DNA from: Pseudomonadota bacterium
Lineage (GTDB): Bacteria > Desulfobacterota > Anaeroferrophillalia > Anaeroferrophillales > Tharpellaceae
Assembly (NCBI GenBank): GCA_011049115.1
Contig: DSCM01000133.1
Location: forward strand, 6,849 to 70,848
Reading direction: 5' to 3'
Length of the DNA: 64,000 nucleotides
Positions 1,504 through 30,511 of the stretch are shown one piece after another (position 1 is the stretch's first letter; each line of letters begins with the position of its first letter). The position numbers were made by a program, and so were the translations under genes. The notes below the pieces were generated by a model, which ran no database searches, had not been told where the DNA came from, and saw nothing but the letters and a program-made list of their open reading frames with translations.

Positions 1504-1563
1504 TGGCGGCCAGACCGTCAAAATCGGTATTGATATGGGATGTGATCACGGTAAGCAAACTTT

Positions 1564-4037: not shown

Positions 4038-4149
4038 AATCCGTCTCGACCAGCGCCCTACCATCATTCGGCCGGGCTTTGAGCCCGGATAAAACCCATC
4101 CTTTTTCAAGGGCAGGTGGACAGCGTCCGCCGCGCACCAGTGACACAGC

Positions 4150-5319: not shown

Positions 5320-6071
5320 AGACCAGCTCCGCGCCGCAGCAGATTATCGATTAGGCTCATCAAACCGCGGATAATCCGCACTTCACGGCTGGTCATTGCC
5401 GCCCGTCCGAAAAGCCGGCGCAGATATTCAAGTAAATGATCGGGATTACTGCGATCAAGAAAACCGGCAGCACTTAAAGTCCGACGCAGATGCGCGTACA
5501 TCCCCTGCAATTCAGTATGCGCCGCCAGAGCGGCAACTGCGGACTCCGATCTTCCTGGCTGAGCTTCGAGGCGACTGAGCTCGTAACCGTACAGAAGTAC
5601 GGATTGCGCCAGGTTGAGTGAGGAAAATTCCGGATTGACCGGAATCGAAGAAAGCATATGACTGTGGCGGCGCTGTTCGCGGCCCAGACCGAAATCCTCC
5701 CGGCCAAACATGATGGCCACCGGCACTCGGGTCCCGAGTTCAGCAATCTTACCCGCCGTCTGCGCCGGAGTGAACACCGGACGACAATATTTGCCGAGGC
5801 GGGCGGTGGTCCCGACCACCAGTTTAAAACCGGCCAGGGCTTCTTCCAGATTATTAAAAACCCGGGCTGCTTCCAGGATGTCATCCGCTCCGCAGGAAAG
5901 CGCCCGAGACTTGTCGGACAGCGGGTCACAGCTCGGTGCCACCAGAAACAAACGCCCAAGATTGAAATTTTTCATGGCCCGGGCCACAGCCCCGACATTT
6001 AAATCAAGTTTCGGTTCGACCAGGACAACGGCCAGCTCCGGCCAGAAATTTTTCACGAGAAAATCAGACAT
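5316..6071 (-). CDS. trmJ: SpoU/TrmH-class tRNA 2'-O-methyltransferase, TrmJ-like
   Basis: LAVVLVEPKLDLNVGAVARAMKNFNLGRLFLVAP motif typical of TrmJ N-terminus; start trimmed to MSDFLV (cat at 6069-6071); the ORF-track start at 6185 gives an implausible Cys-rich leader. Confidence 0.7.
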   Translation of the reverse strand: MSDFLVKNFWPELAVVLVEPKLDLNVGAVARAMKNFNLGRLFLVAPSCDPLSDKSRALSCGADDILEAARVFNNLEEALAGFKLVVGTTARLGKYCRPVFTPAQTAGKIAELGTRVPVAIMFGREDFGLGREQRRHSHMLSSIPVNPEFSSLNLAQSVLLYGYELSRLEAQPGRSESAVAALAAHTELQGMYAHLRRTLSAAGFLDRSNPDHLLEYLRRLFGRAAMTSREVRIIRGLMSLIDNLLRRGAGL

Positions 6072-10742: not shown

Positions 10743-10818
10743 TGGTGCCGGGGGACGGAATTGAACCGCCGACACGGGGATTTTCAGTCCCCTGCTCTAC
10801 CGACTGAGCTACCCCGGC
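10743..10818 (-). tRNA. tRNA-Phe (anticodon GAA)
   Basis: Reverse complement reads GCCGGGGTAGCTCAGTCGGTAGAGCAGGGGACTGAAAATCCCCGTGTCGGCGGTTCAATTCCGTCCCCCGGCACCA: canonical cloverleaf, anticodon loop CTGAAAA, encoded CCA. Confidence 0.9.
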
Positions 10819-11307: not shown

Positions 11308-11343
11308 GCCCGCCTGGGTTTAAACCCGCCGGCTATTTTTTTT
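11308..11343 (+). terminator. Putative terminator after rod-like gene (12-bp palindrome GGGTTTAAACCC plus GCCGGC, then T8)
   Basis: gggtttaaaccc at 11316-11327 is a perfect palindrome, followed by gccggctattttttttg; the T-run also encodes the Lys-rich C-terminus of the convergent ehr small-subunit gene. Confidence 0.4.
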
Positions 11344-12109
11344 GCCGGCCCTTGATTCTGCCGACCAGTCGCAACAGACCGTCCAGAATCGTCAGTGGAT
11401 GCGGCGGACAGCCGGGAATATACAGATCAACCGGCAAGAGGAAACCGGCGCCGTCATTAACCTGCTCATGCCCCCGGTAAGGCCCCCCACCAATCGCGCA
11501 GGCCCCGACCACAATCACGATTTTCGGCTCCGGCACCGCCTCCCAGGTTTTTTTCAGGGCCAGTTCCATGTTTTTCGTAACGGGGCCGGTAATCAGAAGG
11601 CCGTCGGCATGCCGGGGAGAGGCCACGAACTGAATCCCAAAACGCCCCAAATCCCAACCGATCGTACATAACACGTTCACATCCGCTTCGCAGGCGTTAC
11701 AACCACCCGCACTGACCTGGCGCAGTTTCAGGGAGCGGCCGAAAAGCTTTTTCAGACGCCGATCCAGCTCGGTCGCCAACCGGATTTCCATCTGTTCAGC
11801 CGTGACCTGCAAATCCTCGCGCCGACGAACCGCGAGTCGGTAATCCTCGGAAAAAGAGATGGCTTCCCGAGGACAGGCCGTCATGCAATCGGTGCAGAAA
11901 AGACATTTGCCCATATCCAGGCTTTTGTTTTCGACGTCGATCGCTCCCACCGGACAAACCTCCGCACAAATCCGACAGCCGGCCTCACATTTATCCAGGG
12001 CAAACAATAGGCGTCCGCGAAAATGCGGCGGCAGCAGCGGAGGCTTCCCTTCCGGAAACTTGATGGTACGATAGCCCTGTTTGAAACGGGAGACGAATTC
12101 CTGATACAT
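11333..12109 (-). CDS. Ehr/group-4-hydrogenase-type small subunit (NuoB/HycG-like) fused to an N-terminal 2x[4Fe-4S] ferredoxin (HycF-like) domain
   Basis: Two CxxCxxCxxxCP motifs (CEAGCRICAEVCP, CLFCTDCMTACP) then GGCNACEAD, VASPRHADGLLITGPVT, VGACAIGGGPY, IPGCPPHP (NuoB N2-cluster cysteines retained). Confidence 0.8.
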   Translation of the reverse strand: MYQEFVSRFKQGYRTIKFPEGKPPLLPPHFRGRLLFALDKCEAGCRICAEVCPVGAIDVENKSLDMGKCLFCTDCMTACPREAISFSEDYRLAVRRREDLQVTAEQMEIRLATELDRRLKKLFGRSLKLRQVSAGGCNACEADVNVLCTIGWDLGRFGIQFVASPRHADGLLITGPVTKNMELALKKTWEAVPEPKIVIVVGACAIGGGPYRGHEQVNDGAGFLLPVDLYIPGCPPHPLTILDGLLRLVGRIKGRQKK

Positions 12110-12127
12110 GTTTATATCCTTAAACTT

Positions 12128-13660
12128 TTAAAGATCATGCCCACAATAGGAAAGATTGAAACTCTTGTTGCACAAGGGAAAATCGGAAATTTCCTGCCGC
12201 CGCAAAACCTGAGCCAGAGCAAACCAGTTGTGAAAAGATGGATCGACGATCTTGTAGCGGGCGAAACTGCCGCCCGCATCGGTGATGCCGACATGGCAAA
12301 TTTCACCCCGCCAGCCTTCGCAGAGGGCCACCGCCAGGGAATCGGCCTGCAGCGGAGCGGAAGTAACCCTCACCTTGCCGGAGGGCAAATGTTTCAACTG
12401 TTCCTCGATAAAAGCAAGGGACTGCTGAATTTCCAGCCACCGAACATAGGCCCGCCCCAGAACATCCCCTGAGTCATAAGTGGAAATCGGAATCTGCGCG
12501 AAACGATAAATCCCCGTGGGATGGTCGTAGCGCACATCCCGCGGCAGACCACAGGCGCGCGCCGCCGGCCCGACAATTCCCAGGGCGACGGCGGTCTCCC
12601 GGGCCAGACGACCGGTGTCCTCAAAACGGGCCATCACCGACTGATTCTCCCATAAAAGATTAATCGCCTCGCTCGATTCCTTTTTCAGAATGCGCAGCCG
12701 GCGCAGTAATTCCTCGATCCCACTCTGGTCGACATCAAACCCCACTCCGCCCGGTTGAATCAGCCCCCGCCCGAAACGATTGCCGCAAAGATAGGCGGTC
12801 AGGTTTAAAAACTCACCCCGAATGCGACCGCAATAACTTGCGGTCGGCAAAAAACCGACATCTCCCGACAAGGCGCCGAGATCGCCCACATGATTGGCCA
12901 GCCGCTCAAATTCCAGAGCAATGCCCCGCAGGGCCTGGGCGCGCACCGGTTTTTGTATATGGGCAAAACCTTCAAACACCTGACAATAAGCCAGGCTGTG
13001 ACCGATCGTGGTATCGCCGGCCAGGGTTTCCATAAAATGCAGGGTTCTGGCATTCGGTCCACCGGGCAGAGCTTCTTCCACCCCACGATGCTGATAGCCC
13101 AGCGCGATCTCCAGATGAAAAACCTCTTCCCCATGACATTGAAAACGAAAATGCCCCGGTTCAATAACGCCGGCATGAACCGGACCGACCGCCACCTCAT
13201 GAACCTGGTCCCCGGCAATCCGGTAAAAATCACCGACCGCCGGCAATATCGGTTCACCCGCCGGCCGCTCCCAGGCATCCCGGCCCGTCCAGGATGGGCG
13301 GTAACGCACCGGCTTAAACCAGGGATGAGACCGGGCTTTGAGGCCGAACTGCTCGGCAATTTCCCGCTCAAAGAGCTGAACCTGGTGACAGTTCGAAGCC
13401 AGGGAGGGAAAACTCGTTTCCGTCACCTCGCTACGGCCGACATAGAGATGATTATCCTCATCATCGGCCAGGACAACGTACAGAATCGTGTTTGCTTCCG
13501 ACGGCGAAGGCGCAGCGAACAGGGCGCTCACCCTTTGGCCCCGCTCAACCGCGGCGCTGATGGTCTGCATAAAATCATCAACCGCCAAACCAGGGATATC
13601 CTTCAGAGAAACAACCCCACCGTTGGCGATGGTCGCAAGTTTGGTCGACATGGGCATCAT
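12128..13660 (-). CDS. Ehr/group-4-hydrogenase-type large subunit (fused NuoC–NuoD / HycE-like) lacking canonical [NiFe]-ligating CxxC motifs
   Basis: 510 aa with NuoC-like N-terminus and NuoD/HycE-like body; no CxxC pair anywhere; C-terminus ends NLSYCGHDL rather than a DPCxxCxxR-type motif. Confidence 0.8.
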   Translation of the reverse strand: MMPMSTKLATIANGGVVSLKDIPGLAVDDFMQTISAAVERGQRVSALFAAPSPSEANTILYVVLADDEDNHLYVGRSEVTETSFPSLASNCHQVQLFEREIAEQFGLKARSHPWFKPVRYRPSWTGRDAWERPAGEPILPAVGDFYRIAGDQVHEVAVGPVHAGVIEPGHFRFQCHGEEVFHLEIALGYQHRGVEEALPGGPNARTLHFMETLAGDTTIGHSLAYCQVFEGFAHIQKPVRAQALRGIALEFERLANHVGDLGALSGDVGFLPTASYCGRIRGEFLNLTAYLCGNRFGRGLIQPGGVGFDVDQSGIEELLRRLRILKKESSEAINLLWENQSVMARFEDTGRLARETAVALGIVGPAARACGLPRDVRYDHPTGIYRFAQIPISTYDSGDVLGRAYVRWLEIQQSLAFIEEQLKHLPSGKVRVTSAPLQADSLAVALCEGWRGEICHVGITDAGGSFARYKIVDPSFHNWFALAQVLRRQEISDFPLCNKSFNLSYCGHDL

Positions 13661-15090
13661 CCTCGATTCTCCAGAAAGCTGACGGCGTTATTGAGCATGG
13701 ATTGCAGAAATTCCGGAATGTACAGGCCCAGCAGCAAGACGATTGCCATAAAAGCCAACACCGGCGCCGCCGTCAGGAAAACATCCCGGTAACCGGAGCC
13801 GATCACATCCGTGGGAACTCGACCCTGCACCACGCGTAAAACCGTGATCCCCATGCCGATAAAGACCAGGAACAGAAATACCAGGAAGAGCCCTCCGGCC
13901 CAGAAACGCCCGGTGCTGAAAGCGGCGTCAAGAATCGAGAATTCACTGATAAAGGGAGCGAAGGGAGGCGATCCGGTAATCGCCAGGAAACCGGCCAGAA
14001 ACAAAGCCCCAGATAACGGCAGACGCCGGAGAGCGCCGCACACCTGATCGGTATTCTTGCTCGCGTAAGCCCGGTGAATATTGCCGGCCGAAAGAAACAA
14101 GACCCCCTTGGTCATGGCATTATTGATCATATGCAGCAGGGTTCCGAACAGGGCCGGGCCGCCGATTCCCAGGCCCAGAACCAGGATCCCCATATGCTCG
14201 ACGCTGGAATAGGCCAGCATGCGTTTGAAATCACGCTGGCTGAGCATGAAAATACCGGCGACCGCCATGGAAAACAGGCCCATGAAAACCAGCAGTTTCG
14301 CCATAAATTGCTGTTCCCCCGCGGCAAGACCGATCTGATAGATCCGCAGCAAAGCGAGAAAGGCGCCGCTGGTAATCCCGCCGGCAAAGATACAACCGAC
14401 CACGCCGGAAGCTTCACCATAGGCATCGGGTTTCCAGGTGTGCATGGGAGCCAGCCCCATCTTCGTCCCATAACCAACCAGAATCAGGATGAACGCGGCT
14501 CGCAACCAGGGTTTCGCCAAGCCCGGTCCGTTCTCAAGCAGCTCGGTAAAACCCAGAGTCGCTTCCATTCCTCCCTGCAGGGAGGAATAGGCCAGGAAAA
14601 AGGTTCCCAACAGGGCCAGCGCGATACCCACGGATCCGACCAGCAGATATTTCCAGGTGGCTTCGATACTGCGCGGGGTATGATTGAAATAGATCAGGGG
14701 AGCCGTAACCAGGGTGGTGCCCTCGATCGCCACCCATAAGAGTCCGAGATGGTGAGCCCAGGCAACCAGGGTTATCAGCCCGAGAAAAGCCAGCAGACAA
14801 GCAACAAAGATGCGATTGGGCCGTTCCTGTCTGAATTTAAGATAGCCCACCGTGTAAAAAGACGAGAACAGATACAGCAGGGTTATGGTCAGCAGAATGA
14901 TCGCTCCGACCGGATCCAGCACGAGCCAGGGCGTCCGGCTTCCCCACTGAGGGAAAATAAGCACCAAAACAGTACCGGCGGTATGCGCCAAGGCCGTCAC
15001 CGGCATGAGCCAGGGACGCCAGTAATTACTGGTCACCACCATGGCCAAAGCGGCCATGGCCAGAGGTAACAGAATCAGGGCCAGGGCCAT
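13657..15090 (-). CDS. NuoN/NuoM/HyfF-like proton-pumping antiporter subunit
   Basis: Polytopic membrane protein with GTKMGLAPMHTWKPDAYGEA (NuoN/M signature around conserved Lys/Glu); start trimmed to MALALILL to give 4-nt overlap with upstream gene. Confidence 0.7.
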   Translation of the reverse strand: MALALILLPLAMAALAMVVTSNYWRPWLMPVTALAHTAGTVLVLIFPQWGSRTPWLVLDPVGAIILLTITLLYLFSSFYTVGYLKFRQERPNRIFVACLLAFLGLITLVAWAHHLGLLWVAIEGTTLVTAPLIYFNHTPRSIEATWKYLLVGSVGIALALLGTFFLAYSSLQGGMEATLGFTELLENGPGLAKPWLRAAFILILVGYGTKMGLAPMHTWKPDAYGEASGVVGCIFAGGITSGAFLALLRIYQIGLAAGEQQFMAKLLVFMGLFSMAVAGIFMLSQRDFKRMLAYSSVEHMGILVLGLGIGGPALFGTLLHMINNAMTKGVLFLSAGNIHRAYASKNTDQVCGALRRLPLSGALFLAGFLAITGSPPFAPFISEFSILDAAFSTGRFWAGGLFLVFLFLVFIGMGITVLRVVQGRVPTDVIGSGYRDVFLTAAPVLAFMAIVLLLGLYIPEFLQSMLNNAVSFLENRG

Positions 15091-15094
15091 GAAA

Positions 15095-15736
15095 TTACTC
15101 CTTAAGAGAAGAAAGATGGCGCGTATCCAAAGAGGAAAACGTGCGATTGATTTGGTTGGTAATGATTGAAACAATGAAAATACTGACAAAAAGGTCGAGC
15201 AGCATCCCCATTTCCACGACCAGTGGAATCGCCTCCATCAGCAGCAGGCTGAACATATAGATGCCGTTTTCCAGCACCAGATAACCCAGCACCTGAGTCA
15301 ATGATTTCAGCCTGGTCGTCAACAGAATAAACCCCACCAGGACGACCGTGATCGCGGTTGGAATAATAAGCGACTCAGACTGTCCCGGCACCTGCCCGCG
15401 CCCGCAGATCAGAAATACCGCCGCCGTCACCAGGGCGCCGATGATCGTCGACGGCAGCAAACCGATAATGGGTTCAACTTCCCGTTTGATCTGCACATCG
15501 CGCAGAGCTTTGATCATAATTGCGGGAATAACGATCCCCTTCAGGGAAATGGCCGCCAGTGAAGCCAGAATTGTGGCAAAGGAGAGATGCGAATGGATGA
15601 ACAGAGGTAAAAACCCCATCAGCACCCCCTGTAAAGCCACGATGCGAATCACCGAAATGATGCTCGCGTTGCCGAGGGCAAAAAGATTAAGCGCCAGAAT
15701 GAGCATGAAAATCGCATTCATTAACTGATCCATCAA
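15095..15736 (-). CDS. HyfE-like small hydrophobic subunit of complex I / hydrogenase-4 type
   Basis: 213 aa, ~6 predicted TM helices; position and size match HyfE in hyf/ehr-type operons. Confidence 0.55.
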   Translation of the reverse strand: MMDQLMNAIFMLILALNLFALGNASIISVIRIVALQGVLMGFLPLFIHSHLSFATILASLAAISLKGIVIPAIMIKALRDVQIKREVEPIIGLLPSTIIGALVTAAVFLICGRGQVPGQSESLIIPTAITVVLVGFILLTTRLKSLTQVLGYLVLENGIYMFSLLLMEAIPLVVEMGMLLDLFVSIFIVSIITNQINRTFSSLDTRHLSSLKE

Positions 15737-15737
15737 A

Positions 15738-16649
15738 TCACCTCAACAAAACCACAAAGGCCGAACCGCATAAAAGAACGGAGACGATCAATAAGGACGG
15801 CACTCTCGACATCCGCAGGCGGGCCATGATCGATTCGATAACCCCGACCGAAACCGCAAGCCCAAGCAAACCGGTGATAAAGATCAGCCAGTCCAGCCAG
15901 ATTTTTCCGGAAGCTGCCGGCAGCACGAGATTAAGAAAAACGGAACCGAGAACCATGAACTTTAACGACGAGGCATATTCAATCAGGCCCAGCAGAGGCC
16001 CACTGTGATCAAGCACCATAACTTCATGGATCATGGTCAATTCAAGATGGGTATTGGGGTCATCCACCGGAATACGGCTGTTCTCGGCCAGGAAGACAAT
16101 ATAAAAACCCAGGGCGATCATGACGATTGAAGCCGCACTGCCCCGATGAAAAAGAGAAACCTCTGGATCGTGCAGCATGCCGGCAAGAGAAAGTGAGCCG
16201 GAAAGTTTGGCCAGCACCAAAAAAGCAAAAAACATCGCGGGCTCGGTCAGGACCGCGAACGTCACCTCACGGGAAGCCCCCATACCTTCAAAGGCTGAAC
16301 CGGTATCCAGGGCGGCGGCGGTCGTAAAAAACCGGGCCAGGCCGAAAAGGTAGGCAAACAGGAGAAAATCCCCGGTAAAGGAGACCAGGGCCGGAGAACT
16401 GCCGAGCGGAATCAGGACGGCGGCGGCCAGCACCGCGATCAGCGTGATAATCGGGCCGGCCTGAAAAACCCAGGTGGTGGTTCCGCTCAGAACCAAACCC
16501 TTACGCATAAGCTTGAAAAGATCATAGTAAAACTGAAAAAAAGGAGCGCCTTTACGTCCGGCCAAAAAAGCTTTAGTTTTATTGACCACTCCCAGTAAAA
16601 TTGGCGGTAAAACCAACAAGAGAAACAGATGCACCGGCAGATTGATCAT
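15738..16649 (-). CDS. NuoH/HycD/HyfC-like membrane subunit
   Basis: 303 aa polytopic protein; position and size typical of the NuoH homolog in group-4-type clusters. Confidence 0.7.
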   Translation of the reverse strand: MINLPVHLFLLLVLPPILLGVVNKTKAFLAGRKGAPFFQFYYDLFKLMRKGLVLSGTTTWVFQAGPIITLIAVLAAAVLIPLGSSPALVSFTGDFLLFAYLFGLARFFTTAAALDTGSAFEGMGASREVTFAVLTEPAMFFAFLVLAKLSGSLSLAGMLHDPEVSLFHRGSAASIVMIALGFYIVFLAENSRIPVDDPNTHLELTMIHEVMVLDHSGPLLGLIEYASSLKFMVLGSVFLNLVLPAASGKIWLDWLIFITGLLGLAVSVGVIESIMARLRMSRVPSLLIVSVLLCGSAFVVLLR

Positions 16650-18644
16650 AAACCACCTCCCACGCCGCCGAAGATAAAGAGGCCCAAAGTCATCAACAGG
16701 ACGTAGAGAACATAGATATGCGTCCAGCCATGCTGAAGGATGTAGATCTTGGGCACAACTCGACTTGCCATTTTAAATGCCGGCAAAACCAGTCTGTCCA
16801 AGACGGTGTCCGGCATGACTTCCTGAAATTCAGTTTTTTGCGGAAAAGGTGAAAAGGTCAGCGCGGGAAAACGAATCATGGGCCATAAGACAAAACCGAA
16901 AAGTTTGCTAAGCGGCTGGGTAAACGAAGTCCCCGTGTACTGCATTTTTGCCGCAGGTTGCGAATAACCACAATCCCAGGTCGGCCCCGAGCCCACTATT
17001 TTTTTCTTCCGCGCGCGCAGATACCAGGCCCCCGCCACAAGCAAAGCGATCAAACTTATACCGTTACAAGAGGCCAGTCCTGAAGGTGAGGCCAAAAGGG
17101 CAAGCTTCTGGGCCGGATCGAGCAGGGGCATCCAGCAACGCACGGCTTTCTCAAACAAAGGCGACACCGCCATCGGCAGCAGGCCGATGAAAAAACAACC
17201 GCCCGCCAATAAAAACATAGGCGCCAGCATGCTGATTTCGGGATCATGCGCCGCCGCGGAAGCCGACGAGCGTGGAACGCCCAGGAAAATGGCGCCATAG
17301 AGTTTGACAAAGGTGACGACCGCCGCCAGAGCGCCGATCGTGGCCAGGGCCACGGCACCGGCACCCGCCAGGGCCAAACTCGCTTCCGGCGTTTTCGTCG
17401 CGAGGGTTTTAAACAAACCCAGATAAATAAACCATTCGCCGACAAAACCGTTAAGCGGCGGCAAGGCGCAGATGGCCAGTGCCCCAACCAGAAAAAGAGC
17501 CGCGCTCACCGGCATTTTTTTAGCGCCCCCCATTTGTTCGAGATCGCGAGTGTGCCCGGCATGAATAATCGCCCCGGCATTGAAAAAGAGCAGGGCCTTG
17601 AACAATCCATGATTCCAGACATGGAGCAGGGCACCACTCATTCCCAGGAGCACCAGTCCCGGGCGGGCACAGGTCCGGCCCAGCAGGGCAGCCCCACCCC
17701 CATGGTTATAATACCGACGTTTTCAATGCTGCTGTAAGCCAGCGCCCTTTTCAGATCACGTTGACTTAAAGCGAAAACAATGGCGAATAAACCACTCAGC
17801 CCCCCGGTAACCAGCAACAGGATACCCCACCAGGAAGCGCCACAGGAAAACAGACTGGAGATTCGCAGCAGGCCGTAAATACCCATTTTCAGCATTACTC
17901 CGGACATCAGGGCCGACACATGACTGGGGGCGTTGGCATGGGCTTCCGGCAGCCAAACATGCAAGGGCATGAGACCGGCCTTACAGGCGAAACCCAGAAG
18001 CACCAGAACAAAAATCAAGCCCGCGCCGAACAACGGCACCGTCGCCGGGGCCACCAGCAGGGAAAATGAACCCGTGGCCTGGTGCCAGAGAGAAAACATG
18101 GCGATCAGTAACAAGGTGCCGACATGAGTGGCGACCAGATAAATCCGCCGGCCTGCCGAACCTCGAGAAGATCATCCTCAATCGTGGCGGCAAAATAGGC
18201 CGAAACGGCCATAACCTCCCAGACCAGCAGAAAAAGAACGCCATCCCGGGCAATCACGACCAAAGCCATGCTCCCGGCCAGCAAGCCGTAGAAGATCCCC
18301 AGTTTCTTTCCATTTTCCGGATGCTCAAGCTGTTTCCAGTAGCTCAGGCTATAGACTGAACCAAGTGCGGCAATCGTGAAAATCAAGCTCAGGAAGAAAG
18401 CGCTGAGCGCAGCGACGGCCACGGTAAAGCTTCCCCAGGGCAAACACCAGGGCAAGGACAGGACCGAAACCTCGGTACCGCACCAAGACCATCCCGTACT
18501 CAGGATGCCCAACAGGCTTCCGGTCAGCAGCAGACTCACTGTCAAACGCTGCCCCGCCGTCGGTCCGAGCGGCAACAGACTCGCCGGTAAACCGCTGAAA
18601 AGCAACAACCCCAGACCCCAAAACACCAACCCAAGCCCTTCCAT
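16646..18644 (-). pseudogene. HyfB/NuoL/MrpA-like antiporter subunit paralog, split in three ORFs by two -1 frameshifts
   Basis: ORFs 18105..18644, 17638..18114 and 16646..17653 align colinearly to N-terminal, middle (GLMPLHVWLPEAHANAPSHVSALMSGVMLKMGIYGL) and C-terminal parts of the intact downstream paralog; junction 1 near 18150-18160, junction 2 in a run at 17691-17705 (plus strand gccccaccccc, i.e. minus-strand G5-T-G4 atgggggtggggctg). Confidence 0.7.
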
Positions 18645-18812
18645 CTTTTTTTAAACCTCTCAACAAAATCTACAGAATTAACCAACCCCATGCAGGCCGG
18701 CTGACATTTTTTCTTTTGCTTACCCCAGGCGTCTGATGACCGTAAACCAAACGCAGAAAACCGGACACATTCGCGTCCGGCATAAAGAAAGCACCTATCT
18801 GATTCTTCGCTC

Positions 18813-20825
18813 TTAAAGCAGGCCGGCGAAGATCTCGGCAAAAGGAAGCAGGGTCGTCAGCATGAGTAAAACGGCCACGACGACATACAGAACATAGAGA
18901 CGCGTCTGTCCCTGCTGGAAACGATAAAACCAGCGCAGCTGCCTTTTGAGCCGACAGAAACCCGGAATCAGCGCCCGATCCAGAACCAGCTCGGCGACAT
19001 GGCTATGCAGACGGCTTCTCTCCGGCATTACGCCTCTGATTTCAGGCCCCCTGACTTCAGGTTTGAGAACCCAGACGAACAAGCCCAGTAAAGTCCGGGC
19101 AAACGATGAGGCCGTGTATTGCATCCTGGCCGTCGGCGCGGCGTAACCACAATCCCAGGTGACCACTTTGCGCCGCGACCACGGCTTGCGACAACGGCGA
19201 AAGCAAAGAACCGGAAGTAAAACCAGGCTCAGCAGAAGAAACGCCGACCAACTGATGGCGGAAAAGGGAATCAAGCCCGCCAGGGTCGGACTGTAGGTCG
19301 ACAACGAAACCGGCAACCAGGCGGCGATAGCCTGCTCAAGCACCGGAACCATCAGCCCCGGCGCCAGGCCCAGAACCAGACATAATCCGGCCAGAACCAG
19401 CATGGAAGCAAGCATGACGCCGGGCGCTTCAGGGGCCGACGCCGCCGCCGGACTGCGCGGCGTCCCCAGAAAAACCGCGCCATAGACCTTGACGAAACAA
19501 GCTATGGCCAAGGCCCCGATCATGGCCAGAACCGGAGCTGCGACCCCCACCATCAAACCAGAATTTCCCGGAACCATAAAGGTTTTAAAAACCCCCAGAT
19601 AAACAAAAAACTCACTGACAAAACCATTCAAAGGCGGCAGACCGCAGATAGCCACGGCCCCGATCAGAAAGAGAACCGCCGTCCAGGGCAGGCGTTGCGC
19701 AAGCCCCCCCAGCTGATCGATGCGGCGGGTATGAGTCGCGTGAACAATCGCTCCTGACCCCAGAAACAGCAACGATTTAAAAAGACTGTGGTTCCAGATG
19801 TGCAACAGACAGCCGGCCATTCCCAGCATAATCCATTCCGGCCGGCCATAGCTGCGGCCGAGCATGGCCAGTCCCAGACCCAGCAAGATAATGCCGATAT
19901 TTTCAACGCTGTGATACGCCAGCAGGCGCTTCAGGTCATGCTGAGCCAAGGCAAAGATAACCCCCAATAAACCGCTCAGGGCTCCGGCCGCCAGAATGAA
20001 CCAACCCCATAAGGCCGGAGGATCAGGCAGCAGGGAAAGGATGCGAATCAAGCCGTAAAGCCCGATTTTCAGCATGACTCCGGACAAGACCGCCGACACA
20101 TGACTGGGCGCGTTCGCGTGCGCACCGGGCAACCAGAAATGCAGCGGCATGATTCCAGCTTTCAGACCAAAACCGACAAAAGCCAGAAAAAACAGGATAT
20201 GGCTCTGCAACCTCGAGACGCTCCCGAGCGCCGGGGAAAAAAAAGCAAATGATCCAGTCAGATGTCGCCAGAAAATAAACAAGCCGAAAAGCACCAGGGT
20301 CCCGAAATGAGTGGCCAGCAGATAAACCAGGCCGCTCTTTCGACATTCTTCAAGCTCGTCTTCCGTCGTAACCAGAAAAAAGGCCGAAAGCGCCATCACC
20401 TCCCAGCCCAGCAGAAAAGCCAGAGCATGCGTACTGACCACCAACAAGGCCATCCCCGCCAGCAAAGTGCCCCAGAAGCAACGCAACCCGGAAGCGTTGT
20501 GTTGGTTTTTCTGCTGCGGCCAATACCCCAGACCAAAGACCGCTCCCAGAAAACCCATCACAAAAATCGGCACCAGGAAAAAGGCGCTCAGAGCGTCAAG
20601 CCCCAGACAGGAACCGCCGGCGGGCGGCCATGGGAAAGCGTGAGCGGTCGAAAAAGCCGACAGGAAAAAAACCCGACCGCTGCCGATCAAACCGGACAAG
20701 GCTCCAAGTCCCAGCAGGAAAACCGCGCTCCGCTCCCCCCAGACCGAAGTCCGCGGCAGAAAAAGCCCGGGCACCCCACTACCGGCCACCAGAATCAGGG
20801 CCAGATTCAGCAAAAAAAAATTCAC
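18813..20825 (-). CDS. HyfB/NuoL/MrpA-like antiporter subunit (intact)
   Basis: 670 aa; IMPLHFWLPGAHANAPSHVSAVLSGVMLKIGLYGLIRI signature of NuoL/MrpA family; first gene of the ehr-like operon. Confidence 0.75.
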   Translation of the reverse strand: MNFFLLNLALILVAGSGVPGLFLPRTSVWGERSAVFLLGLGALSGLIGSGRVFFLSAFSTAHAFPWPPAGGSCLGLDALSAFFLVPIFVMGFLGAVFGLGYWPQQKNQHNASGLRCFWGTLLAGMALLVVSTHALAFLLGWEVMALSAFFLVTTEDELEECRKSGLVYLLATHFGTLVLFGLFIFWRHLTGSFAFFSPALGSVSRLQSHILFFLAFVGFGLKAGIMPLHFWLPGAHANAPSHVSAVLSGVMLKIGLYGLIRILSLLPDPPALWGWFILAAGALSGLLGVIFALAQHDLKRLLAYHSVENIGIILLGLGLAMLGRSYGRPEWIMLGMAGCLLHIWNHSLFKSLLFLGSGAIVHATHTRRIDQLGGLAQRLPWTAVLFLIGAVAICGLPPLNGFVSEFFVYLGVFKTFMVPGNSGLMVGVAAPVLAMIGALAIACFVKVYGAVFLGTPRSPAAASAPEAPGVMLASMLVLAGLCLVLGLAPGLMVPVLEQAIAAWLPVSLSTYSPTLAGLIPFSAISWSAFLLLSLVLLPVLCFRRCRKPWSRRKVVTWDCGYAAPTARMQYTASSFARTLLGLFVWVLKPEVRGPEIRGVMPERSRLHSHVAELVLDRALIPGFCRLKRQLRWFYRFQQGQTRLYVLYVVVAVLLMLTTLLPFAEIFAGLL

Positions 20826-20848
20826 TCGCGGTTCCTTGGTCTATCGAT

Positions 20849-21538
20849 TCAATTTCGCGCTGGAATTTCACCTTCAATCAGAGTCAGCAGGGCCAGCAGC
20901 TCTTGTTGCGATGCTTTTTCATGTAAGGCATCCTGCAGACGTTGATTGTGTAAAACATAACTGATTCTTGACAATAAATGCAAATGAACTCGCGTCGTCG
21001 TACTGATCAGGGTAAACAGGACGTTTACGGGCTTTCCATCCAGAGCCTGGAAATCTATGGGTTTTTCTAAAAAACAAAGGGTTACCGAAGGCTTTGCGAC
21101 GTTCAAGACCACGGGATTGCGCACATGGGGGATGGCGACTCCCCCCCCGAAACCGGTTGAACCCAGACTTTCCCGCGCCAGAAGCACTTGATAAAGGAAC
21201 TCACGGTCGACCGTTTCGGGCAAATTTAGGAGGGCGACCATCGACCGCAGCACCGACGCCGAATCGTTGCCGGGCAGTTGATAGATTACGCCTCCGTGAC
21301 TAATCGCCTCCACCAAAGAGGGCAGAACCGTCGAACCGTTGCGTCCTTTCTCCAGAAAGCTATCCGGCGCCAACTTCATATGCCGGGCGTTGGCCCATTC
21401 CAGAATCTCGCTGCGCACAAAACGATATTGCTCGTTGATTTTGCGAGATGGAATGATTGACTTTTTAATCCACCGATGAATCGTGTCCTCGGAGACGTTA
21501 AGCAGTTGCGCGATGTCCTGAACCGACAAATTCATCAA
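20849..21538 (-). CDS. Transcriptional regulator: N-terminal excisionase/MerR-like HTH fused to PTS EIIA(Ntr)-type (PtsN-like) domain
   Basis: N-terminal LSVQDIAQLLNVSEDTIHRWIKKSIIPS (HTH_17-like), C-terminal GGGVAIPHVRN... (GIAIPH-type EIIA-2 phosphorylation-site motif); 23 nt upstream of ehr operon, same strand. Confidence 0.65.
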   Translation of the reverse strand: MMNLSVQDIAQLLNVSEDTIHRWIKKSIIPSRKINEQYRFVRSEILEWANARHMKLAPDSFLEKGRNGSTVLPSLVEAISHGGVIYQLPGNDSASVLRSMVALLNLPETVDREFLYQVLLARESLGSTGFGGGVAIPHVRNPVVLNVAKPSVTLCFLEKPIDFQALDGKPVNVLFTLISTTTRVHLHLLSRISYVLHNQRLQDALHEKASQQELLALLTLIEGEIPARN

Positions 21539-21603
21539 TGAAACTCCTTGAAAAAAATAACCATTTTTTTACTCCGCGGATATCGGGCAATAAAAATCAG
21601 CTC

Positions 21604-22815
21604 TTACTTCGGGGAACGGATATCAAAACGGGGAGCGGCCAGCATTCTGCCGATCTGCTCTTTCAAATCCGTCTGATCCGGGTTTTCACTAGCCTGTTCC
21701 TGCAACAGGTTAAACAAACGACTCTGCTCCAGCGGATGAGCATAGGCTTCCGGAGTGCCGTCCTTCAGTTGAATATGGGCGGCCCAGGGAACAAAATAGG
21801 TGGTTGCCGGAAACCCCTGATACTCGGAGATGTCTACGTTGAGACCCGCCACATAAAGCAGATTTTTATCGGCATACTCATTCCCCCGACGAATGGACTC
21901 CACCGTCCGGGCAAACTCAAGCTGGATATTGATCTTGGCCGCTCTCAACGCCGGGTTGGGAGCGGTGACGATCGTGGGCATGAACTCGATCAGAGATCTT
22001 TCCAGCAGGATAGACTCATCGGTTTCATGGAAAGCTTCCTGAAAAAAGAAAAGGTCATCATACAGATATTCACCGATCGCTTCCCCCTCTCCCCCCTTCC
22101 ACACATAACCTGCGATCTCAAGACGCCGGCGAAAGGATTCGGAAACCTCGTAAGTCTGGCTCGTGGAAAGGGCCGCTATCGGATTGATCCGACCGGCCGC
22201 GTCAATTCTGGCGATGTTCTCCAACCGCAGGACCAGGCCGCTTTTCACCGGATGCAAGGGGAAATCGACAAATGAATTCTTAACGGTTATCAGGTGCCGC
22301 CCCGCATCTTCCCGCCGGAGAAAGATGCGATTTCGGGCAAAATGATATTGTTCGAGATAGGGCGTGATCACATGCGTGATCTTGCCGCAGGAGTTGGAGC
22401 TGCACGAACCTTTCATTTTGGGGCGCACCCATTTTCCGTAAGCACCGGTATGCGGGTCATAGCCCACATGGCTGGCCTGCACGATCAATGAATCCTCGCC
22501 ATGATGGGCATGCGGACCATGGCGGTCAATCGCGACGATGCCGCCCACCCGGCCATGATTAAAAGGAAAGGTGCCGAAATGCTTGGTCAACAGAATAATC
22601 GGCCAGCCCTGATTTTCATCGGAGCAAAAGGCCCGGGAAGGCATGATGTAACCTTTCCTGAACCCCAGGGTCATGCAGAGGTTATAAAGCTTGGGAACGA
22701 ATTCGGCATAGGGAATAGCCAGACCATCCACCGCGAAAGGCGCCAAGGTTCTAACAATATATGGTTTCTGATAAAAATTCGGCATTGATTGAACCTCCGG
22801 TAAGCTAAACCGCAA
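21604..22815 (-). CDS. Conserved hypothetical Cys/His-rich protein
   Basis: 403 aa; segments FCSDENQGW, HGPHAHHGED, GSCSSNSCGKITH suggest metal binding; no confident family assignment from sequence alone. Confidence 0.5.
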   Translation of the reverse strand: MRFSLPEVQSMPNFYQKPYIVRTLAPFAVDGLAIPYAEFVPKLYNLCMTLGFRKGYIMPSRAFCSDENQGWPIILLTKHFGTFPFNHGRVGGIVAIDRHGPHAHHGEDSLIVQASHVGYDPHTGAYGKWVRPKMKGSCSSNSCGKITHVITPYLEQYHFARNRIFLRREDAGRHLITVKNSFVDFPLHPVKSGLVLRLENIARIDAAGRINPIAALSTSQTYEVSESFRRRLEIAGYVWKGGEGEAIGEYLYDDLFFFQEAFHETDESILLERSLIEFMPTIVTAPNPALRAAKINIQLEFARTVESIRRGNEYADKNLLYVAGLNVDISEYQGFPATTYFVPWAAHIQLKDGTPEAYAHPLEQSRLFNLLQEQASENPDQTDLKEQIGRMLAAPRFDIRSPK

Positions 22816-23514: not shown

Positions 23515-23965
23515 GTTGAGCGCTTAAATCCACGCTGATTTTTCAATGCCGACAGCTTGAAGAGTTTAAAACTCCTTCGAGACAAACCAACCTGGAATAT
23601 AATTTGCAGACCGCAGACGACACCATTTCAAAAGTATATTACCACATCGATAATATATCGATTTCAAGGAAGACATCCTCGAAACAATATTTTTATATAC
23701 ATACGACTTTTTTTCCCATTAATCAAGCCGGAAATTTCGGGCAAAATAATATTGTGTTTTTTTATTCATTCTGGTAAGCCTTCTTTGATTATGCAAGGTT
23801 AAACATGCGTTATAAAATCGCCGTCAACCGGGAAAATCGGCGGGAATAAATAAATAATGAAGTTCAACAACCCCCGCGCCGACTTCCGTTTCTAATAAAA
23901 AAACGGTTTTCCAGAGCCGGCGGGGATCAAATCAGCAACGAGGTTTGCCAAGGAGAAATCAGACC

Positions 23966-25096
23966 ATGAGTGAGATCAAAACCGTGGGCGTGGTTGGTTT
24001 CGGCGTCATGGGCGCCGCCATCGCCCTGAATGCCGCCGGAGCCGGCTATCAGGTTATTTACAAGGAACTCAATGATGAACTAGTCGCCGCCATGTTTGAG
24101 CGCTGGGTGACCAAACCATTGAGCAAGAGAGTGGCCCAAGGCAAGATGAGCCAGGGCGAGATGGATGAACTGAGTGGCCGGATAAGCGGCACCAGTCTTT
24201 ACTCGGGACTGCGGGAATGTGATCTTGTCATTGAAGCGGCAATCGAAAAAATGGATCTTAAAATCGAGGTTTTTACCGAGCTCTCCAAGGCCTGCCGCCA
24301 AGACGCCATCCTCGTCAGCAACACTTCAACCTTTCTGATTGAAAAGCTCATGGCCAAAGTCGACAATCCGGGTCGCACCGCCGGCCTGCATTATTTCTTT
24401 CCGGCCAATATCAACCGTTTAGTCGAAGTCATCCGACAGAAGAAAACCAGCGACGACACCTATCACGCCCTAATGGAATTTGCTCGCAGAAACCGTAAAG
24501 TGGCCATCACGGTTAAAGATTTTCCGGGATTTGCCGTCAATCCCGTTTTTATCGCCAGCTATGTCGTTCTCGACAGTTTCCATGGGGATAAATTCAATGC
24601 CATCAGCCTCGAAAGCATTTCCCAGGAAACTCTGGGGCTTAAATTCGGCATCATGTGGGTCCAGAACGGAGCGGGTCTCGGCACCTGCTACCATGCCGGT
24701 GTTTCCATGGCCGCATACCTGCGCGCGGCAGATACCGGCTATCCCGCGATGTGCCCCCAACTGAAGAGTCAGTTTGAAAGCGGTCGTCCCTGGGATATTG
24801 AATCCGGCGTGATCATCGAAGATTCGGCCGCCCGGACCGAGGTCAGGGAACGACTTCTGGGAGCCATTTTTGCCATTTCCACCCATTTGATTGAACACGA
24901 GGTGGTAAGCCCCGACGATCTGGAGCTCGGCATCATCACTTCTCTGGCCTGGCCCAAGGGTCCCCTGACCCTGATGAACGAGCTGGGCATGGAGGAAAGC
25001 TCCCGTCTGGTCAAACTCGCGGTCGCCGCCGGAGATTTCAATCTGCCCCAAAAGTTCGCGGACAACGACCTGAGTCCCTGGAAGTTAAAAAAATAA
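23966..25096 (+). CDS. 3-hydroxyacyl-CoA dehydrogenase (NAD-binding)
   Basis: VGVVGFGVMGAAIA Rossmann motif, C-terminal 3HCDH domain; start set at ATG 23966 preceded by AGGAGA RBS (23951-23956). Confidence 0.8.
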   Translation: MSEIKTVGVVGFGVMGAAIALNAAGAGYQVIYKELNDELVAAMFERWVTKPLSKRVAQGKMSQGEMDELSGRISGTSLYSGLRECDLVIEAAIEKMDLKIEVFTELSKACRQDAILVSNTSTFLIEKLMAKVDNPGRTAGLHYFFPANINRLVEVIRQKKTSDDTYHALMEFARRNRKVAITVKDFPGFAVNPVFIASYVVLDSFHGDKFNAISLESISQETLGLKFGIMWVQNGAGLGTCYHAGVSMAAYLRAADTGYPAMCPQLKSQFESGRPWDIESGVIIEDSAARTEVRERLLGAIFAISTHLIEHEVVSPDDLELGIITSLAWPKGPLTLMNELGMEESSRLVKLAVAAGDFNLPQKFADNDLSPWKLKK

Positions 25097-25117: not shown

Positions 25118-25167
25118 TTAAAGAGCGTGAAGAATCTTTAAACAAAAGATTCTTCACGCTCTTTAAA
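25118..25167. terminator. Bidirectional terminator hairpin between convergent 3-hydroxyacyl-CoA dehydrogenase and PfkB-like genes
   Basis: ~20-bp perfect inverted repeat ttaaagagcgtgaagaatcttt / aaagattcttcacgctctttaa with short loop. Confidence 0.6.
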
Positions 25168-26884
25168 TTTTGGCGTCAAATCTTCCGGTCGCAGCAGCAC
25201 CGTCAGCCCTTTTCTTGCGGGCAACTATCTCTTGGGCCAGCCTGAGAATTTCAGCAAAAGGATGGTGAACCTGCGTGGTATTGATGGTGATAATCGTATC
25301 GGTAATCGTGCCGTACCGGGTCGGATCTCCACTCTCATGAAGATGATGGGAAATTATATCCCGCAATTCGGTTTCCGTGCCCATCATGATATGGCGTTCA
25401 TTCTCGGCGATCAGATCTTTGATGCGAGGCCTCTGCCGGGTGCGAATAAAGAACTGGGCTCCCAGGGTGGCGGCTCGCAGGGCATGCCCGCTGTCCCAGC
25501 CAATCGCTTTCAAGGCAATGAAAATTCCGGCGAAGGTATCCCCGGCGCCCAGGGTTGACACCAACTCATCGACAAAATCATCCCCGCAGATAATCCGGCG
25601 ATCGGCATAACGCATGCGAAAAATCGTGTCTTCAGGCATGCGGGCCTTCCGCCAATAAAGCTGAGCCCGTGCCGGAGTCAGGCGCTCGGTATAACGAACC
25701 CCTTTGCTACCCTCGGTCAACAGCAAACGACCGCCCTTATTATTCTCTCCCTTTTTACCTTGATTCATCTGGCGCACAAGTTGACTGCAGGTCAAATCAA
25801 TCCCTCGCCGCCGAACCACGCTGTCCATAAGCAACAATTCATCGGTATTTAAAATCAGGTACTGAATAAATGGAATTATCGCATCATGAATAAGTTCCTC
25901 ACGGCTGTTGAAAAAACGTTCCTGACGCGAAGTATAGTAACGCGAAGCAACCAGCTCGTCCATGCAGCGGAACAAAGTTTTGGTCGGGCAGAAATACGTC
26001 TGTACGGCGCTGGCATACGCCGTATGCAGAAGTCTGCAGACCAGACGCAGTTCCTCCGGGTTGGTCAGCGAATTAACAATCAGATTGGTGTCGACGAACT
26101 CACTGTCTTTGCGCAGCTTATACTCAAGATCAAAATAACGTTGCGCCAGTCGTTCAACCGGAATGATCTCTTCGTTGGTCTGGTTAGAGAGCACGATGCG
26201 ATCCAGAGTCTTGCCCTCATCGTTCTCGATCGTTAAAACATAGCTCGTTCTGGGCACCAGATTTTCAACATGCATTTCCGGAATATCGCCGATCTTAACC
26301 TGATTATCCTGATAAAAGTTTTTCACAAGCTTGAACATGGGATTCTTGACATCAAAGAAAAACAGATGTTCGAACTCAATCGCCGAACTCTCGGCTTTAA
26401 GCTCAGCCGAGTTGTAAAGACAGCGAATTGCATCAATCAGGTTACGATTATTGCCCCCCAACTGCACCTTGGCCTTGCGCTTGACCAAAACCTTGTGCAG
26501 ATCCTTTTCCGTCCGAATAACGTCAGGATAAACAGCGTTAAGCCCCTTGAGCAGGGACGGCAGATCCGAAACCCGCAGATCGGCTGACTTGCGTTCCCCA
26601 TGCTTACCACCAAAAGCCATGGTATAGTATAATTTTTCATTAACCTTCTGCACTTCGCAGGCCGCCAGAGGGTTGACTATCAGCATTGCTTCGCGGCCAT
26701 CGACCTGACAACAGAAAACCGTTCCCAAAGGCAACAGTATCTTATCGTCAATCATGATAATATCATTATTGACGGCCGCCCGAATCTCCTCCAAAGAAGG
26801 TTCGATCATGTAATCGAAAACCGGAATTCCCCCTAAAAAAACAAAGCGACTTTGCGTTTTTTTATCAGCCATGACAATCCTCAT
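25163..26884 (-). CDS. Atypical PfkB-family kinase-domain protein with extra N- and C-terminal regions; low-GC gene
   Basis: 573 aa; PfkB anion-hole motif LGAGDTFAGIF near residue ~450; visibly AT-richer than flanking DNA. Confidence 0.55.
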   Translation of the reverse strand: MRIVMADKKTQSRFVFLGGIPVFDYMIEPSLEEIRAAVNNDIIMIDDKILLPLGTVFCCQVDGREAMLIVNPLAACEVQKVNEKLYYTMAFGGKHGERKSADLRVSDLPSLLKGLNAVYPDVIRTEKDLHKVLVKRKAKVQLGGNNRNLIDAIRCLYNSAELKAESSAIEFEHLFFFDVKNPMFKLVKNFYQDNQVKIGDIPEMHVENLVPRTSYVLTIENDEGKTLDRIVLSNQTNEEIIPVERLAQRYFDLEYKLRKDSEFVDTNLIVNSLTNPEELRLVCRLLHTAYASAVQTYFCPTKTLFRCMDELVASRYYTSRQERFFNSREELIHDAIIPFIQYLILNTDELLLMDSVVRRRGIDLTCSQLVRQMNQGKKGENNKGGRLLLTEGSKGVRYTERLTPARAQLYWRKARMPEDTIFRMRYADRRIICGDDFVDELVSTLGAGDTFAGIFIALKAIGWDSGHALRAATLGAQFFIRTRQRPRIKDLIAENERHIMMGTETELRDIISHHLHESGDPTRYGTITDTIITINTTQVHHPFAEILRLAQEIVARKKRADGAAATGRFDAKI

Positions 26885-27026
26885 CTAAATCATACTTGAT
26901 TTTCATTGTTGATTCGTGCTAAAGGGCACAGCCTCACTGAGGCTTTAACTAAACAGAGAGCATCGTTGCGCTTGAGGTTCTCTTAATATTTACGATAAAC
27001 CAGCCAATTCGACGGAGTATTTAAAG

Positions 27027-27212
27027 ATGGCCAGAGTCTGTGATATCTGCGGTAAAAAACCGCTTGTCGGCAATAACGTTAGTCATGCTCACAATAAAAC
27101 CAAAAAAGTCTGGCGGCCCAATCTGCAGGAAGTCAGGGCCACGATTGACGGACAGAGCCGCAAGATTAAAGCCTGCACCCGTTGTATCCGCTCCGGCGCG
27201 ATCACTAAATAA
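27027..27212 (+). CDS. rpmB: 50S ribosomal protein L28
   Basis: 61 aa [34 protein letters not shown] matches L28 N-terminal consensus (R-V-C-x-x-x-G-K...GNN-SHA-N-TKR). Confidence 0.85.
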
Positions 27213-27236: not shown

Positions 27237-27271
27237 AAAACCGGTACCGGATATCCGGTACCGGTTTTTTT
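27237..27271. terminator. Bidirectional rho-independent terminator between rpmB and relA
   Basis: aaaaccggtaccgg atat ccggtaccggttttttt: perfect stem flanked by A4 and T7. Confidence 0.7.
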
Positions 27272-29482: not shown

Positions 29483-30511
29483 TTACGGGGAGGAAACCAG
29501 TCGGGCATCATTAAAGCCGGCAGCCCTGATCCGATCAAGAACCTTCGGCAAATCGTCTTGAGACCGAAGAGGGTCAAGCGCCAGGACGGTCTGCGGCAAC
29601 ATCAAATTTTCCTTGCGGACCTGGGGATTTAATCCGGCGTCATGATACATATTTTCCCAAGCCACCACACTGCTCTGCAGATAAAATGAACCGACGACCA
29701 CCAGATAGGTCCCTTTTTCCATTTCAAGAAAAGGGTTGTCTCCAAGCTTGCGGGCCGCCGCCATCATCCGGAGCGCCTGCTGCCGCTCGCCAAACGGGCC
29801 CAGATAAATTCTCGTCATCGGGGTCTGACATTTCCGCCTGAAGCTTCTCACTGTAAAACCGAGTTTTTCAAGCTCAGATCGGGCTTTATCCGCAGATTCT
29901 GGCAAAACATAACTGCCGGCTTCAATGACCTGGAGCGGCCGCTCCGGAACGCCATCGCCTGCCGGCAAAGAGACCGACGAAGGCGTGGTGGAGGCGGCCG
30001 GCGGCGCCGGTGGAGTCTTTGTCCCGGCCGCAACCTCGACCTTCGGCAACACCGGGCAACCGGCTTCGACAGGATCCTGATCCACGACAATTGGAACCGC
30101 GGAGTCAACCGTCATGACGCTTGCCAGCCCAGACCTGGCTTCCGAAACCGCCCCAACCCCGGTTTCCGTTTTTGGCGCCGCCGGCTCCAGCGCCGAGCTA
30201 GCTGGAAGGACAGGCGACTCGACTTCCGTTTGAGCCTTCAAATCAACCCGGGAATCGACCGGCACCGCAACCGACCCGTCAGGCCCAGGCATGGGCGAAG
30301 GCTTCACACCCTGATTTATTGTCGGCAGCGCGGCCAAGGCCATCTGCGGACTGCGAATCGGCTTTTTCGGCATTCGCACCGGAGAAAACGAAAGAAAATA
30401 ATAAAGGCCGATCAAGACAAAAAGAACCACCACGATTTCAAAACGCAGAAGATTCTCCAGCCAGTGGTCCAAACCTCTTGCGGCCTGTTGCTTTTTTTTA
30501 CTTTTTACCAT
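29483..30511 (-). CDS. Membrane-anchored SPOR-domain (peptidoglycan-binding) protein with Pro/Ala-rich linker
   Basis: 342 aa; N-terminal TM helix, low-complexity P/A/T-rich middle, two C-terminal SPOR-like repeats. Confidence 0.5.
   Translation of the reverse strand: MVKSKKKQQAARGLDHWLENLLRFEIVVVLFVLIGLYYFLSFSPVRMPKKPIRSPQMALAALPTINQGVKPSPMPGPDGSVAVPVDSRVDLKAQTEVESPVLPASSALEPAAPKTETGVGAVSEARSGLASVMTVDSAVPIVVDQDPVEAGCPVLPKVEVAAGTKTPPAPPAASTTPSSVSLPAGDGVPERPLQVIEAGSYVLPESADKARSELEKLGFTVRSFRRKCQTPMTRIYLGPFGERQQALRMMAAARKLGDNPFLEMEKGTYLVVVGSFYLQSSVVAWENMYHDAGLNPQVRKENLMLPQTVLALDPLRSQDDLPKVLDRIRAAGFNDARLVSSP

Follow-up and report, generated by a model that had tools for sequence, protein, structure and literature searches.

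A probable lineage-restricted, extremely divergent ribokinase-family gene between rpmB and an hbd-like gene of Thermodesulfobacteriota

Among described kinases of the ribokinase (PfkB) fold, the ribokinase of Escherichia coli (RbsK, PF00294) has 309 amino acids (aa) and a small lid made of β-structure only, whereas adenosine kinases carry a large mixed α/β lid, and the 434-aa inosine-guanosine kinase Gsk illustrates that the fold tolerates large insertions. The same fold is found in aminoimidazole riboside kinase, STM4066 of Salmonella, which feeds a purine/thiamine intermediate. Here we describe a gene, referred to as X, that codes for an oversized protein of the PfkB/ribokinase fold and lies in a stretch of 64,000 nucleotides (the window) of contig DSCM01000133.1, assembly GCA_011049115.1. 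An initial annotation had taken X for an AT-rich insertion of probable horizontal origin. Our analysis favours a different account, to which we assign a probability of roughly 0.72: X has been vertically inherited at this site in a small group of uncultured relatives of sulfate and metal reducers, and is a lineage-restricted, extremely divergent member of the ribokinase (PfkB) family.

Conservation and distribution of the X locus

The initial annotation had proposed to compare the hbd–rpmB junction among related genomes for the presence or absence of X. In all of the ~14 relative species for which both flanks are visible, X has rpmB on one side and the hbd-like gene on the other, with protein identities of 61–98%, and at about six further loci it adjoins the one flank that can be seen. 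The order of the block in these relatives is EF-G, SPOR, RelA, rpmB, X, hbd-like and SSB, with an occasional small extra gene or palindromic insert, and the convergent pairing of X with the hbd-like gene is kept wherever Hbd is at least 70% identical, as well as at two further loci (L005 and L021). A scan of 34 X loci and 62 metagenomic hbd-like loci turned up no empty rpmB–hbd junction; it is informative only within the clade, given that Hbd orthologues below ~70% identity lie mostly in other contexts. X has also diverged together with its flanks: identities to the window copies of X, RelA, EF-G and Hbd are 97, 97, 98 and 98% in one relative, then 78, 85, 87 and 86%, and then 61, 67, 71 and 69%. 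Across relatives, whose genomes range from 44% to 69% GC, the GC content at third codon positions (GC3) of X varies between 0.46 and 0.96, following that of the neighbouring genes in each genome. Compared with the closest relative, X is under purifying selection, with a ratio of nonsynonymous to synonymous substitution rates (dN/dS) of 0.27.

The 573-aa open reading frame (ORF) originally reported for X was confirmed on the minus strand, and residue numbers throughout follow this maximal ORF. The gene and its immediate neighbours are as follows.

25163–26884, minus strand: maximal ORF of X, 573 codons, from the ORF listing
25163–26872, minus strand: likely coding sequence of X, 569 aa, with its ATG at 26872
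27027–27212, plus strand: rpmB (ribosomal protein L28), an ORF divergent from X whose orthologues in related loci carry Pfam Ribosomal_L28
23945–25096, plus strand: hbd-like gene of the 3-hydroxyacyl-CoA dehydrogenase family (Pfam 3HCDH_N, E 9.3e-51), convergent with X

Full-length homologues of X form 107 clusters at 38–98% identity, all of them from metagenome-assembled genomes (MAGs) labelled 'Deltaproteobacteria' or Thermodesulfobacteriota. The family is present in 25 of 185,579 species representatives, every one a Thermodesulfobacteriota MAG, with the labels Deferrisomatales, Desulfuromonadaceae, Syntrophales, Desulfobacterales and Desulfarculales. A full-length family profile returned 16 hits from 1.84 billion representative proteins. 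The protein is annotated as hypothetical in most MAGs, and a literature search found no account of such a family.

This occurrence, patchy across several orders of a single phylum, makes ancient transfer within the phylum possible, because the more distant members (38–54% identity), spread over several orders, have unrelated gene neighbours. X could have been present in the ancestor of the window clade and have reached the other orders by old lateral transfers, instead of by descent followed by many losses; the small number of species representatives, spread over several orders and without a common gene neighbourhood, would fit such a history. Against it, the composition of X is fully ameliorated everywhere, and no mobile-element genes lie next to X in the contexts examined. 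We therefore treat old transfer as a possible but rather doubtful origin for the family members outside the window clade.

Fold, catalytic motifs and inserted residues

An AlphaFold2 model of X, computed from a 53-sequence alignment, has a mean predicted local distance difference test (pLDDT) of 90.5 and a predicted template modelling score (pTM) of 0.90. Searching the PDB with this model in Foldseek gave 207 hits at E ≤ 1e-3, of which the top 50 are all ribokinase-family kinases, for the most part adenosine, pseudouridine and ribokinases; the best E value is 4.7e-13 with a probability of 1.00, and target template modelling (TM) scores are 0.6–0.76 over alignments of 480–530 columns. Adenosine kinases rank first (E 4.7e-13); after them come pseudouridine kinase, ribokinase, the sulfofructose kinase YihV and guanosine kinase. 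X is accordingly modelled as a single enlarged ribokinase-like α/β fold with the three-layer α/β/α arrangement.

The profile comparison agrees with the model over the core. When the X family was aligned by hhalign to seven E. coli PfkB kinases combined into one profile, residues 139–478 of X matched RbsK 37–284 with a probability of 87% and an E value of 3.8e-6, with the motifs in register; RbsK or Gsk taken singly were of no use in the same comparison. With the exception of T390, the numbered X residues paired with RbsK residues in these motifs are invariant in the 53-sequence alignment, which spans 38–98% identity. From the N-terminus onwards, and beginning with a proposed motif that lies before the aligned core, the motifs are the following.

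26813–26815, minus strand: codon of Asp24 in the strand-β1 motif FVFLGGIPVFD, the proposed counterpart of RbsK Asp16, which binds a substrate hydroxyl; D24, G18, G19 and P21 invariant in the 53 sequences
26441–26458, minus strand: GG hinge G143-G144-N-N-R-N148 (LGGNNRN), equivalent to RbsK G41-G42-K-G-A-N46 by hhalign; G143, G144 and N148 invariant
From about residue 211 of X: lid hairpin PRTSYVLTIENDEGK, with STGVALIFVNGEGE as its RbsK equivalent by hhalign
25838–25849, minus strand: NxxE motif N346-T-D-E349 (LILNTDE), equivalent by hhalign to RbsK N187/E190, the Mg2+/phosphate site; N346 and E349 invariant
T390, G392 and G395 of X: TxGxxG nucleotide loop LTEGSKG, equivalent to RbsK T223, G225 and G228 by hhalign
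25538–25549, minus strand: anion hole and catalytic-base Asp, G446-A-G-D449, equivalent to RbsK A252-A-G-D255 by Pfam and hhalign; G446, A447, G448 and D449 invariant

The GAGD motif named in the initial annotation is thus present, as TLGAGDTFAG at residues 444–453. The Asp24 motif was matched to LVVLGSINAD16 of RbsK by inspection, with an offset of one residue, and hhalign does not recover this match; in the model a strand occupies residues 12–17, a β-rich segment extends over 22–143, and a helix (145–157) follows the GG hinge. In two distant members (P0108 and P0121) the Pfam PfkB model also aligns the NxxE region.

Counted between these anchors, X has about 260 residues beyond the length of RbsK, comprising ~94 in the lid (from Asp24 to the GG hinge), 16, 41, 8 and 27 in four segments of the core, and ~70 at the C-terminus. 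In the model these extra residues are insertions and not foreign domains. The ~150 N-terminal residues that had been described as an addition to the PfkB domain appear there as strand β1 together with the lid of this one fold, much increased in size, while the broader proposal of an atypical PfkB-like kinase with unusual architecture is upheld by the fold, the catalytic motifs and the size of the insertions. The C-terminal tail is very strongly conserved, and the added lid and tail surfaces include conserved stretches such as HIRMGTETEL...GDPTRYGTI...TTQIQHPF. A possible internal duplication of the lid (FGGKH at 91–95 resembling LGGNN at 142–146, and the hairpin at 50–73 resembling that at 210–237) was rejected, with hhalign of residues 26–128 against 129–245 giving an E value of 0.27.

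Several results weigh against membership of X in the ribokinase family. Pfam PfkB matches X over residues 439–481 only (E 3.1e-4), and its score of 20.6 bits is below the gathering cutoff of 25.8, although several homologues do pass the cutoff (27–30 bits) and 39 of the 53 match at E ≤ 0.01. Ordinary PfkB kinases are absent from the 16 hits that the family profile obtained among the 1.84 billion representatives. Searches of NCBIfam and of PDB sequences gave nothing beyond the GAGD helix; for the PDB, the full profile, the single protein and a sub-profile of residues 128–300 each produced chance matches or that helix only. As the initial annotation had stated for the extensions, no family is recognised in the first ~138 and last ~95 residues: profile searches with residues 1–138 and 479–573 revealed no similarity, either to PfkB or to other proteins, so that the membership of these two segments in the fold would depend on one predicted structure.

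These blank segments in the hhalign, Pfam and PDB sequence searches are what would be expected of a two- or three-domain fusion, in which independent, unrelated domains of novel fold had been joined to both ends of a PfkB core. We consider such a fusion improbable, since the full-length model is one compact unit (as its pTM indicates), residues 12–27 would form the β1-loop-Asp element that opens every ribokinase fold, and the Foldseek alignments to targets of 300–345 residues are longer than the 139–478 core would allow. Modelled in isolation, the C-terminal 89 residues fold poorly (pLDDT 65, pTM 0.33), which also counts against a fusion; this model was too poor for a fold search, and we make no claim of an independent C-terminal domain.

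Predicted activity and substrate

Taking the motifs and the model together, X most likely acts as an ATP-dependent kinase that phosphorylates a sugar- or nucleoside-like substrate by the standard PfkB mechanism. In this mechanism, the lid would close over a small hydroxyl-bearing substrate, as it does in relatives, and Asp449 would deprotonate the acceptor hydroxyl, while the backbone amides of GAGD and an Mg2+ bound by NxxE would stabilise the γ-phosphate as it is transferred from ATP.

The fold may also be kept for binding in place of phosphorylation, as in plant fructokinase-like proteins, which retain the kinase fold without phosphorylating. X could in principle be such a pseudo-kinase, or a regulatory or scaffold protein, in view of its extreme divergence from active PfkB kinases, of the strongly conserved lid and tail surfaces, which could serve protein–protein contacts, and of the lack of confidence with which the tail folds by itself (pLDDT 65). 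Pseudo-enzymes usually lose catalytic residues, however, and in X D449, G446/G448, N346/E349, G392/G395 and G143/G144 are invariant over 38–98% identity, leaving this alternative with little likelihood.

For an active kinase, the retained set of Asp24, GG, Asn148 and Asp449 suggests a substrate of the sugar or riboside type. Genes of nucleotide metabolism recur, in independent contexts, near members of the family: RelA/SpoT in the window clade, nucleoside diphosphate kinase (NDK) two genes upstream in a Desulfobacterales-like clade, the class II ribonucleotide reductase NrdJ downstream at one locus (L034), an NrdG-like activase in a Deferrisomatales-like clade, and adenylate kinase (Adk) near the distant member P0121. 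A hydrothermal-vent metagenome contig (L103, positions 277–5809) carries a tight same-strand row of an IMPase/HisN-like phosphatase, a distant X-like protein of 584 aa (P0111; profile E 7e-47), a PurB-like lyase and ThiC, which suggests a link to purine/thiamine riboside intermediates. On these grounds we tentatively give a slight preference to a nucleoside, possibly a purine-related one. What speaks against this choice is that a census of 18 unrelated contexts found no neighbour conserved across clades; the preference is a weak one, formed post hoc.

A further and more speculative possibility, which we put forward tentatively, is that X founds an undescribed ribokinase subfamily, with a lid of ~120 residues and a conserved 90-residue C-terminal clamp closed around its active site. 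Its substrate might then be outside the range of known PfkB kinases, for example a purine-pathway riboside (AIR/AICA-riboside-like) or some other metabolite that derives from a nucleoside and is peculiar to anaerobic Thermodesulfobacteriota. X would mark an unassigned kinase activity in uncultured Thermodesulfobacteriota of sediment and groundwater, and its substrate would fill a small gap in their metabolic reconstruction.

Composition, flanking regions and related kinases

X is lower in GC than its surroundings, as the initial annotation had stated, but the deviation is mild and the baseline is 54.0% for the window, not ~58%. The ORF has 49.1% GC, which is −1.8 standard deviations (SD) among 41 long ORFs (mean 54.4%), and its GC3 of 0.561 is −1.4 SD. 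Although the lowest-GC 1.7-kb segment of the 64 kb starts at 25550, making X the AT-richest stretch by a small amount, four other ORFs of the window fall within 2 points of it, among them the neighbouring relA (50.8%). The suggested check of codon usage placed X within the window norm: scored by the codon usage of the other genes, its synonymous codons have a log-likelihood of −1.059 (mean −1.100, SD 0.057), and its dinucleotide δ* is 63 against 68 ± 19, rank 23 of 41. The low GC arises because FYMINK residues are frequent in the protein (0.283, rank 5) and GARP residues scarce (0.241); for relA the fractions are 0.279 and 0.232. The mild deficit therefore reflects amino-acid composition, not foreign origin, and is common to a core gene.

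The junction likewise lacks signs of mobility. No tRNA gene lies beside X (the sole one in the window is at 10743–10818), and neither an integrase nor a target-site duplication adjoins it. A single direct repeat was detected, a chance pair of 14 nt (86%) of which one member falls within the ORF, and searches for phage and defence functions gave no match in PADLOC and nothing significant in PHROGs. Recent horizontal acquisition, by which X would be a foreign AT-rich cassette between hbd and rpmB, could appeal to its place among the lowest-GC ORFs of the window and to the rarity and patchiness of the family, but it is rejected as highly implausible since codon choice and dinucleotide signature are typical, the GC deficit is explained by amino acids, GC3 equals that of the host, and X occupies the same position in all ~14 relative species with both flanks visible, down to 61% identity, while co-diverging with the flanking housekeeping genes.

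The two spacers beside X contain the following features.

25118–25166, unstranded: hairpin with a perfect 22-bp stem and a 5-nt loop, from an inverted-repeat search and folding
26873–27026, unstranded: divergent X/rpmB control region, with sequence blocks conserved in 12 species

The hairpin arms, 25118–25139 and 25145–25166, are 22 nt each and 100% complementary, and the structure overlaps the stop codon of X (25163–25165). Its fold energies are −36.8 and −36.4 kcal/mol, with z scores of −9.6 and −7.8 against shuffles. Beyond the hairpin the plus strand reads AAAUUUUGG and the minus strand GAAAGACGG, which are weak tails (UUUU on plus; UUU followed by purines on minus) without a proper U-tract, and a consensus-based terminator scan made no call at 25118–25166 because a good U-tract is absent. 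Of the ~20-bp perfect bidirectional terminator proposed initially, the perfect stem is confirmed. Relatives carry unrelated hairpins at the X/hbd junction, several of which (L003, L012 and L017) are classical bidirectional terminators of A-tract, stem and T-tract. Because such hairpins recur at the same junction, the element in the window is probably a shared transcription terminator of X and the hbd-like gene, more convincing for the plus-strand (hbd-like) transcript. Matches of the hairpin to Rfam at permissive thresholds were spurious ones of the miRNA type only.

In relatives the X/hbd spacer is also an insertion hot spot, with long palindromic inserts of 166–301 nt (L010 2247–2441, L013 7653–7820 and L014 4657–4959). 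The L014 insert folds at −159 kcal/mol and shares sequence blocks with that of L010; one further locus (L016, 7677–11299) has a 3.6-kb insert with a 1127-aa ORF in this spacer.

At the other end of X, translation probably begins at the second ATG, 26872, since a GAGGA Shine-Dalgarno sequence (26878–26882) stands 5 nt ahead of it, the GAGG of this sequence is kept in 12 species, the upstream ATG is not conserved, being GTG in a 98% relative, and a 98% identical database homologue (P0001) has 569 aa. On the plus strand, CTTGATTTT at 26895–26903 contains a −35-like TTGATT, and TG-C-TAAAGG at 26917–26925 is extended −10-like, without the final T. The arrangement CTTGATTTT-N13-TG-n-TAaAnn, with a 13-nt gap and TGTGnTAaA in the rpmB orientation, is invariant or nearly so across the 12 species. 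This block, 26895–26925, adjoins the X start codon on the opposite strand, just upstream, and is probably the promoter of rpmB, whose Shine-Dalgarno GGAG lies near 27011–27014. A structured region upstream of rpmB, as envisaged at first, is not supported: the 142-nt spacer is no more stably folded than its shuffled versions (z −1.5 and −0.9) and has no Rfam match, and RNAalifold on the rpmB upstream region of 10 species predicts 0 pairs and no consensus structure. The conserved feature of this spacer is its primary sequence. X is best read as a stand-alone transcription unit, divergent from rpmB and probably ending at the hairpin that it shares with the convergent hbd-like gene.

The hbd-like gene likely starts at an internal ATG yielding MSEIKTV. 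Its product combines 3HCDH_N with a divergent C-terminal part of ~180 residues and belongs to a widespread, well-conserved family, found at 59–87% identity in about 56 metagenome contigs (loci L038–L093), mostly in contexts unrelated to X. On the far side of the hbd-like gene is ssb, and on that of rpmB come relA/spoT, a SPOR-domain gene and an EF-G paralogue. The rpmB and relA/spoT genes converge, and the perfect 16+16-nt palindrome (AAAACCGGTACCGGAT/ATCCGGTACCGGTTTT) that separates them at 27237–27268, followed by a T-run, is by its sequence a canonical bidirectional terminator. The SPOR-domain protein (29483–30511, minus strand) is just 72% identical to its orthologue in the near-identical relative L001, with indels in a Pro/Ala-rich linker, and this segment appears to be evolving fast because all neighbouring genes there are 97–99% identical. 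Elsewhere in the window, a conserved 403-aa protein (21604–22815, minus strand) has a weak LCIB-type β-carbonic-anhydrase-like match (E 8.5e-4). It heads a minus-strand row (11333–22815) with a HTH_17+PTS_EIIA_2 regulator, three Mrp/complex-I antiporter-like subunits, and NuoH-like, fused NuoC/D-like and NuoB-like (with Fer4) proteins, and the row resembles an energy-converting complex of the group-4-hydrogenase type, possibly with a partner for CO2 hydration.

The analysis has a corrective value, in that an AT-rich, hairpin-bounded and unrecognisable gene is better read as a core, vertically inherited gene than as an island. It also indicates that the ribokinase fold can be inflated to 573 residues, against ~300, with the catalytic residues retained, in a family to which standard family models are blind.

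The described kinases resemble X to differing degrees. For STM4066, the likeness is confined to the gene context of one distant homologue, P0111, between phosphatase and PurB-like/ThiC genes. The pseudouridine kinases PsuK/PUKI and the inosine-guanosine kinase Gsk are nucleoside kinases of the ribokinase fold and are among the top structural matches (7c1x, 7vva and 6vwo); they lack the longer lid and C-terminal tail of X, and Gsk by itself has no significant profile similarity to it. The best structural matches are adenosine kinases from Trypanosoma brucei (4n09), Schistosoma (3uq6) and human (1bx4), with E values of 4.7e-13 to 6e-11 and target TM-scores of 0.66–0.73. They have a large mixed lid, such as the model suggests for X; identity is 9–13%, X is about 230 residues longer, and the relationship is undetectable by sequence beyond the GAGD helix. 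Compared with RbsK, X is 573 aa long against 309, is about 18% identical over the aligned core, and has Asn145 where RbsK has Lys43 after the GG pair. The two nevertheless have the same predicted fold and the same collinear order of motifs, with the proposed β1-Asp, then GG-x3-N, lid hairpin (T-x-h-h-h...G-x...), NxxE, TxGxxG and GAGD-TF-x-G, and for this reason X would be expected to share the catalytic mechanism of RbsK.

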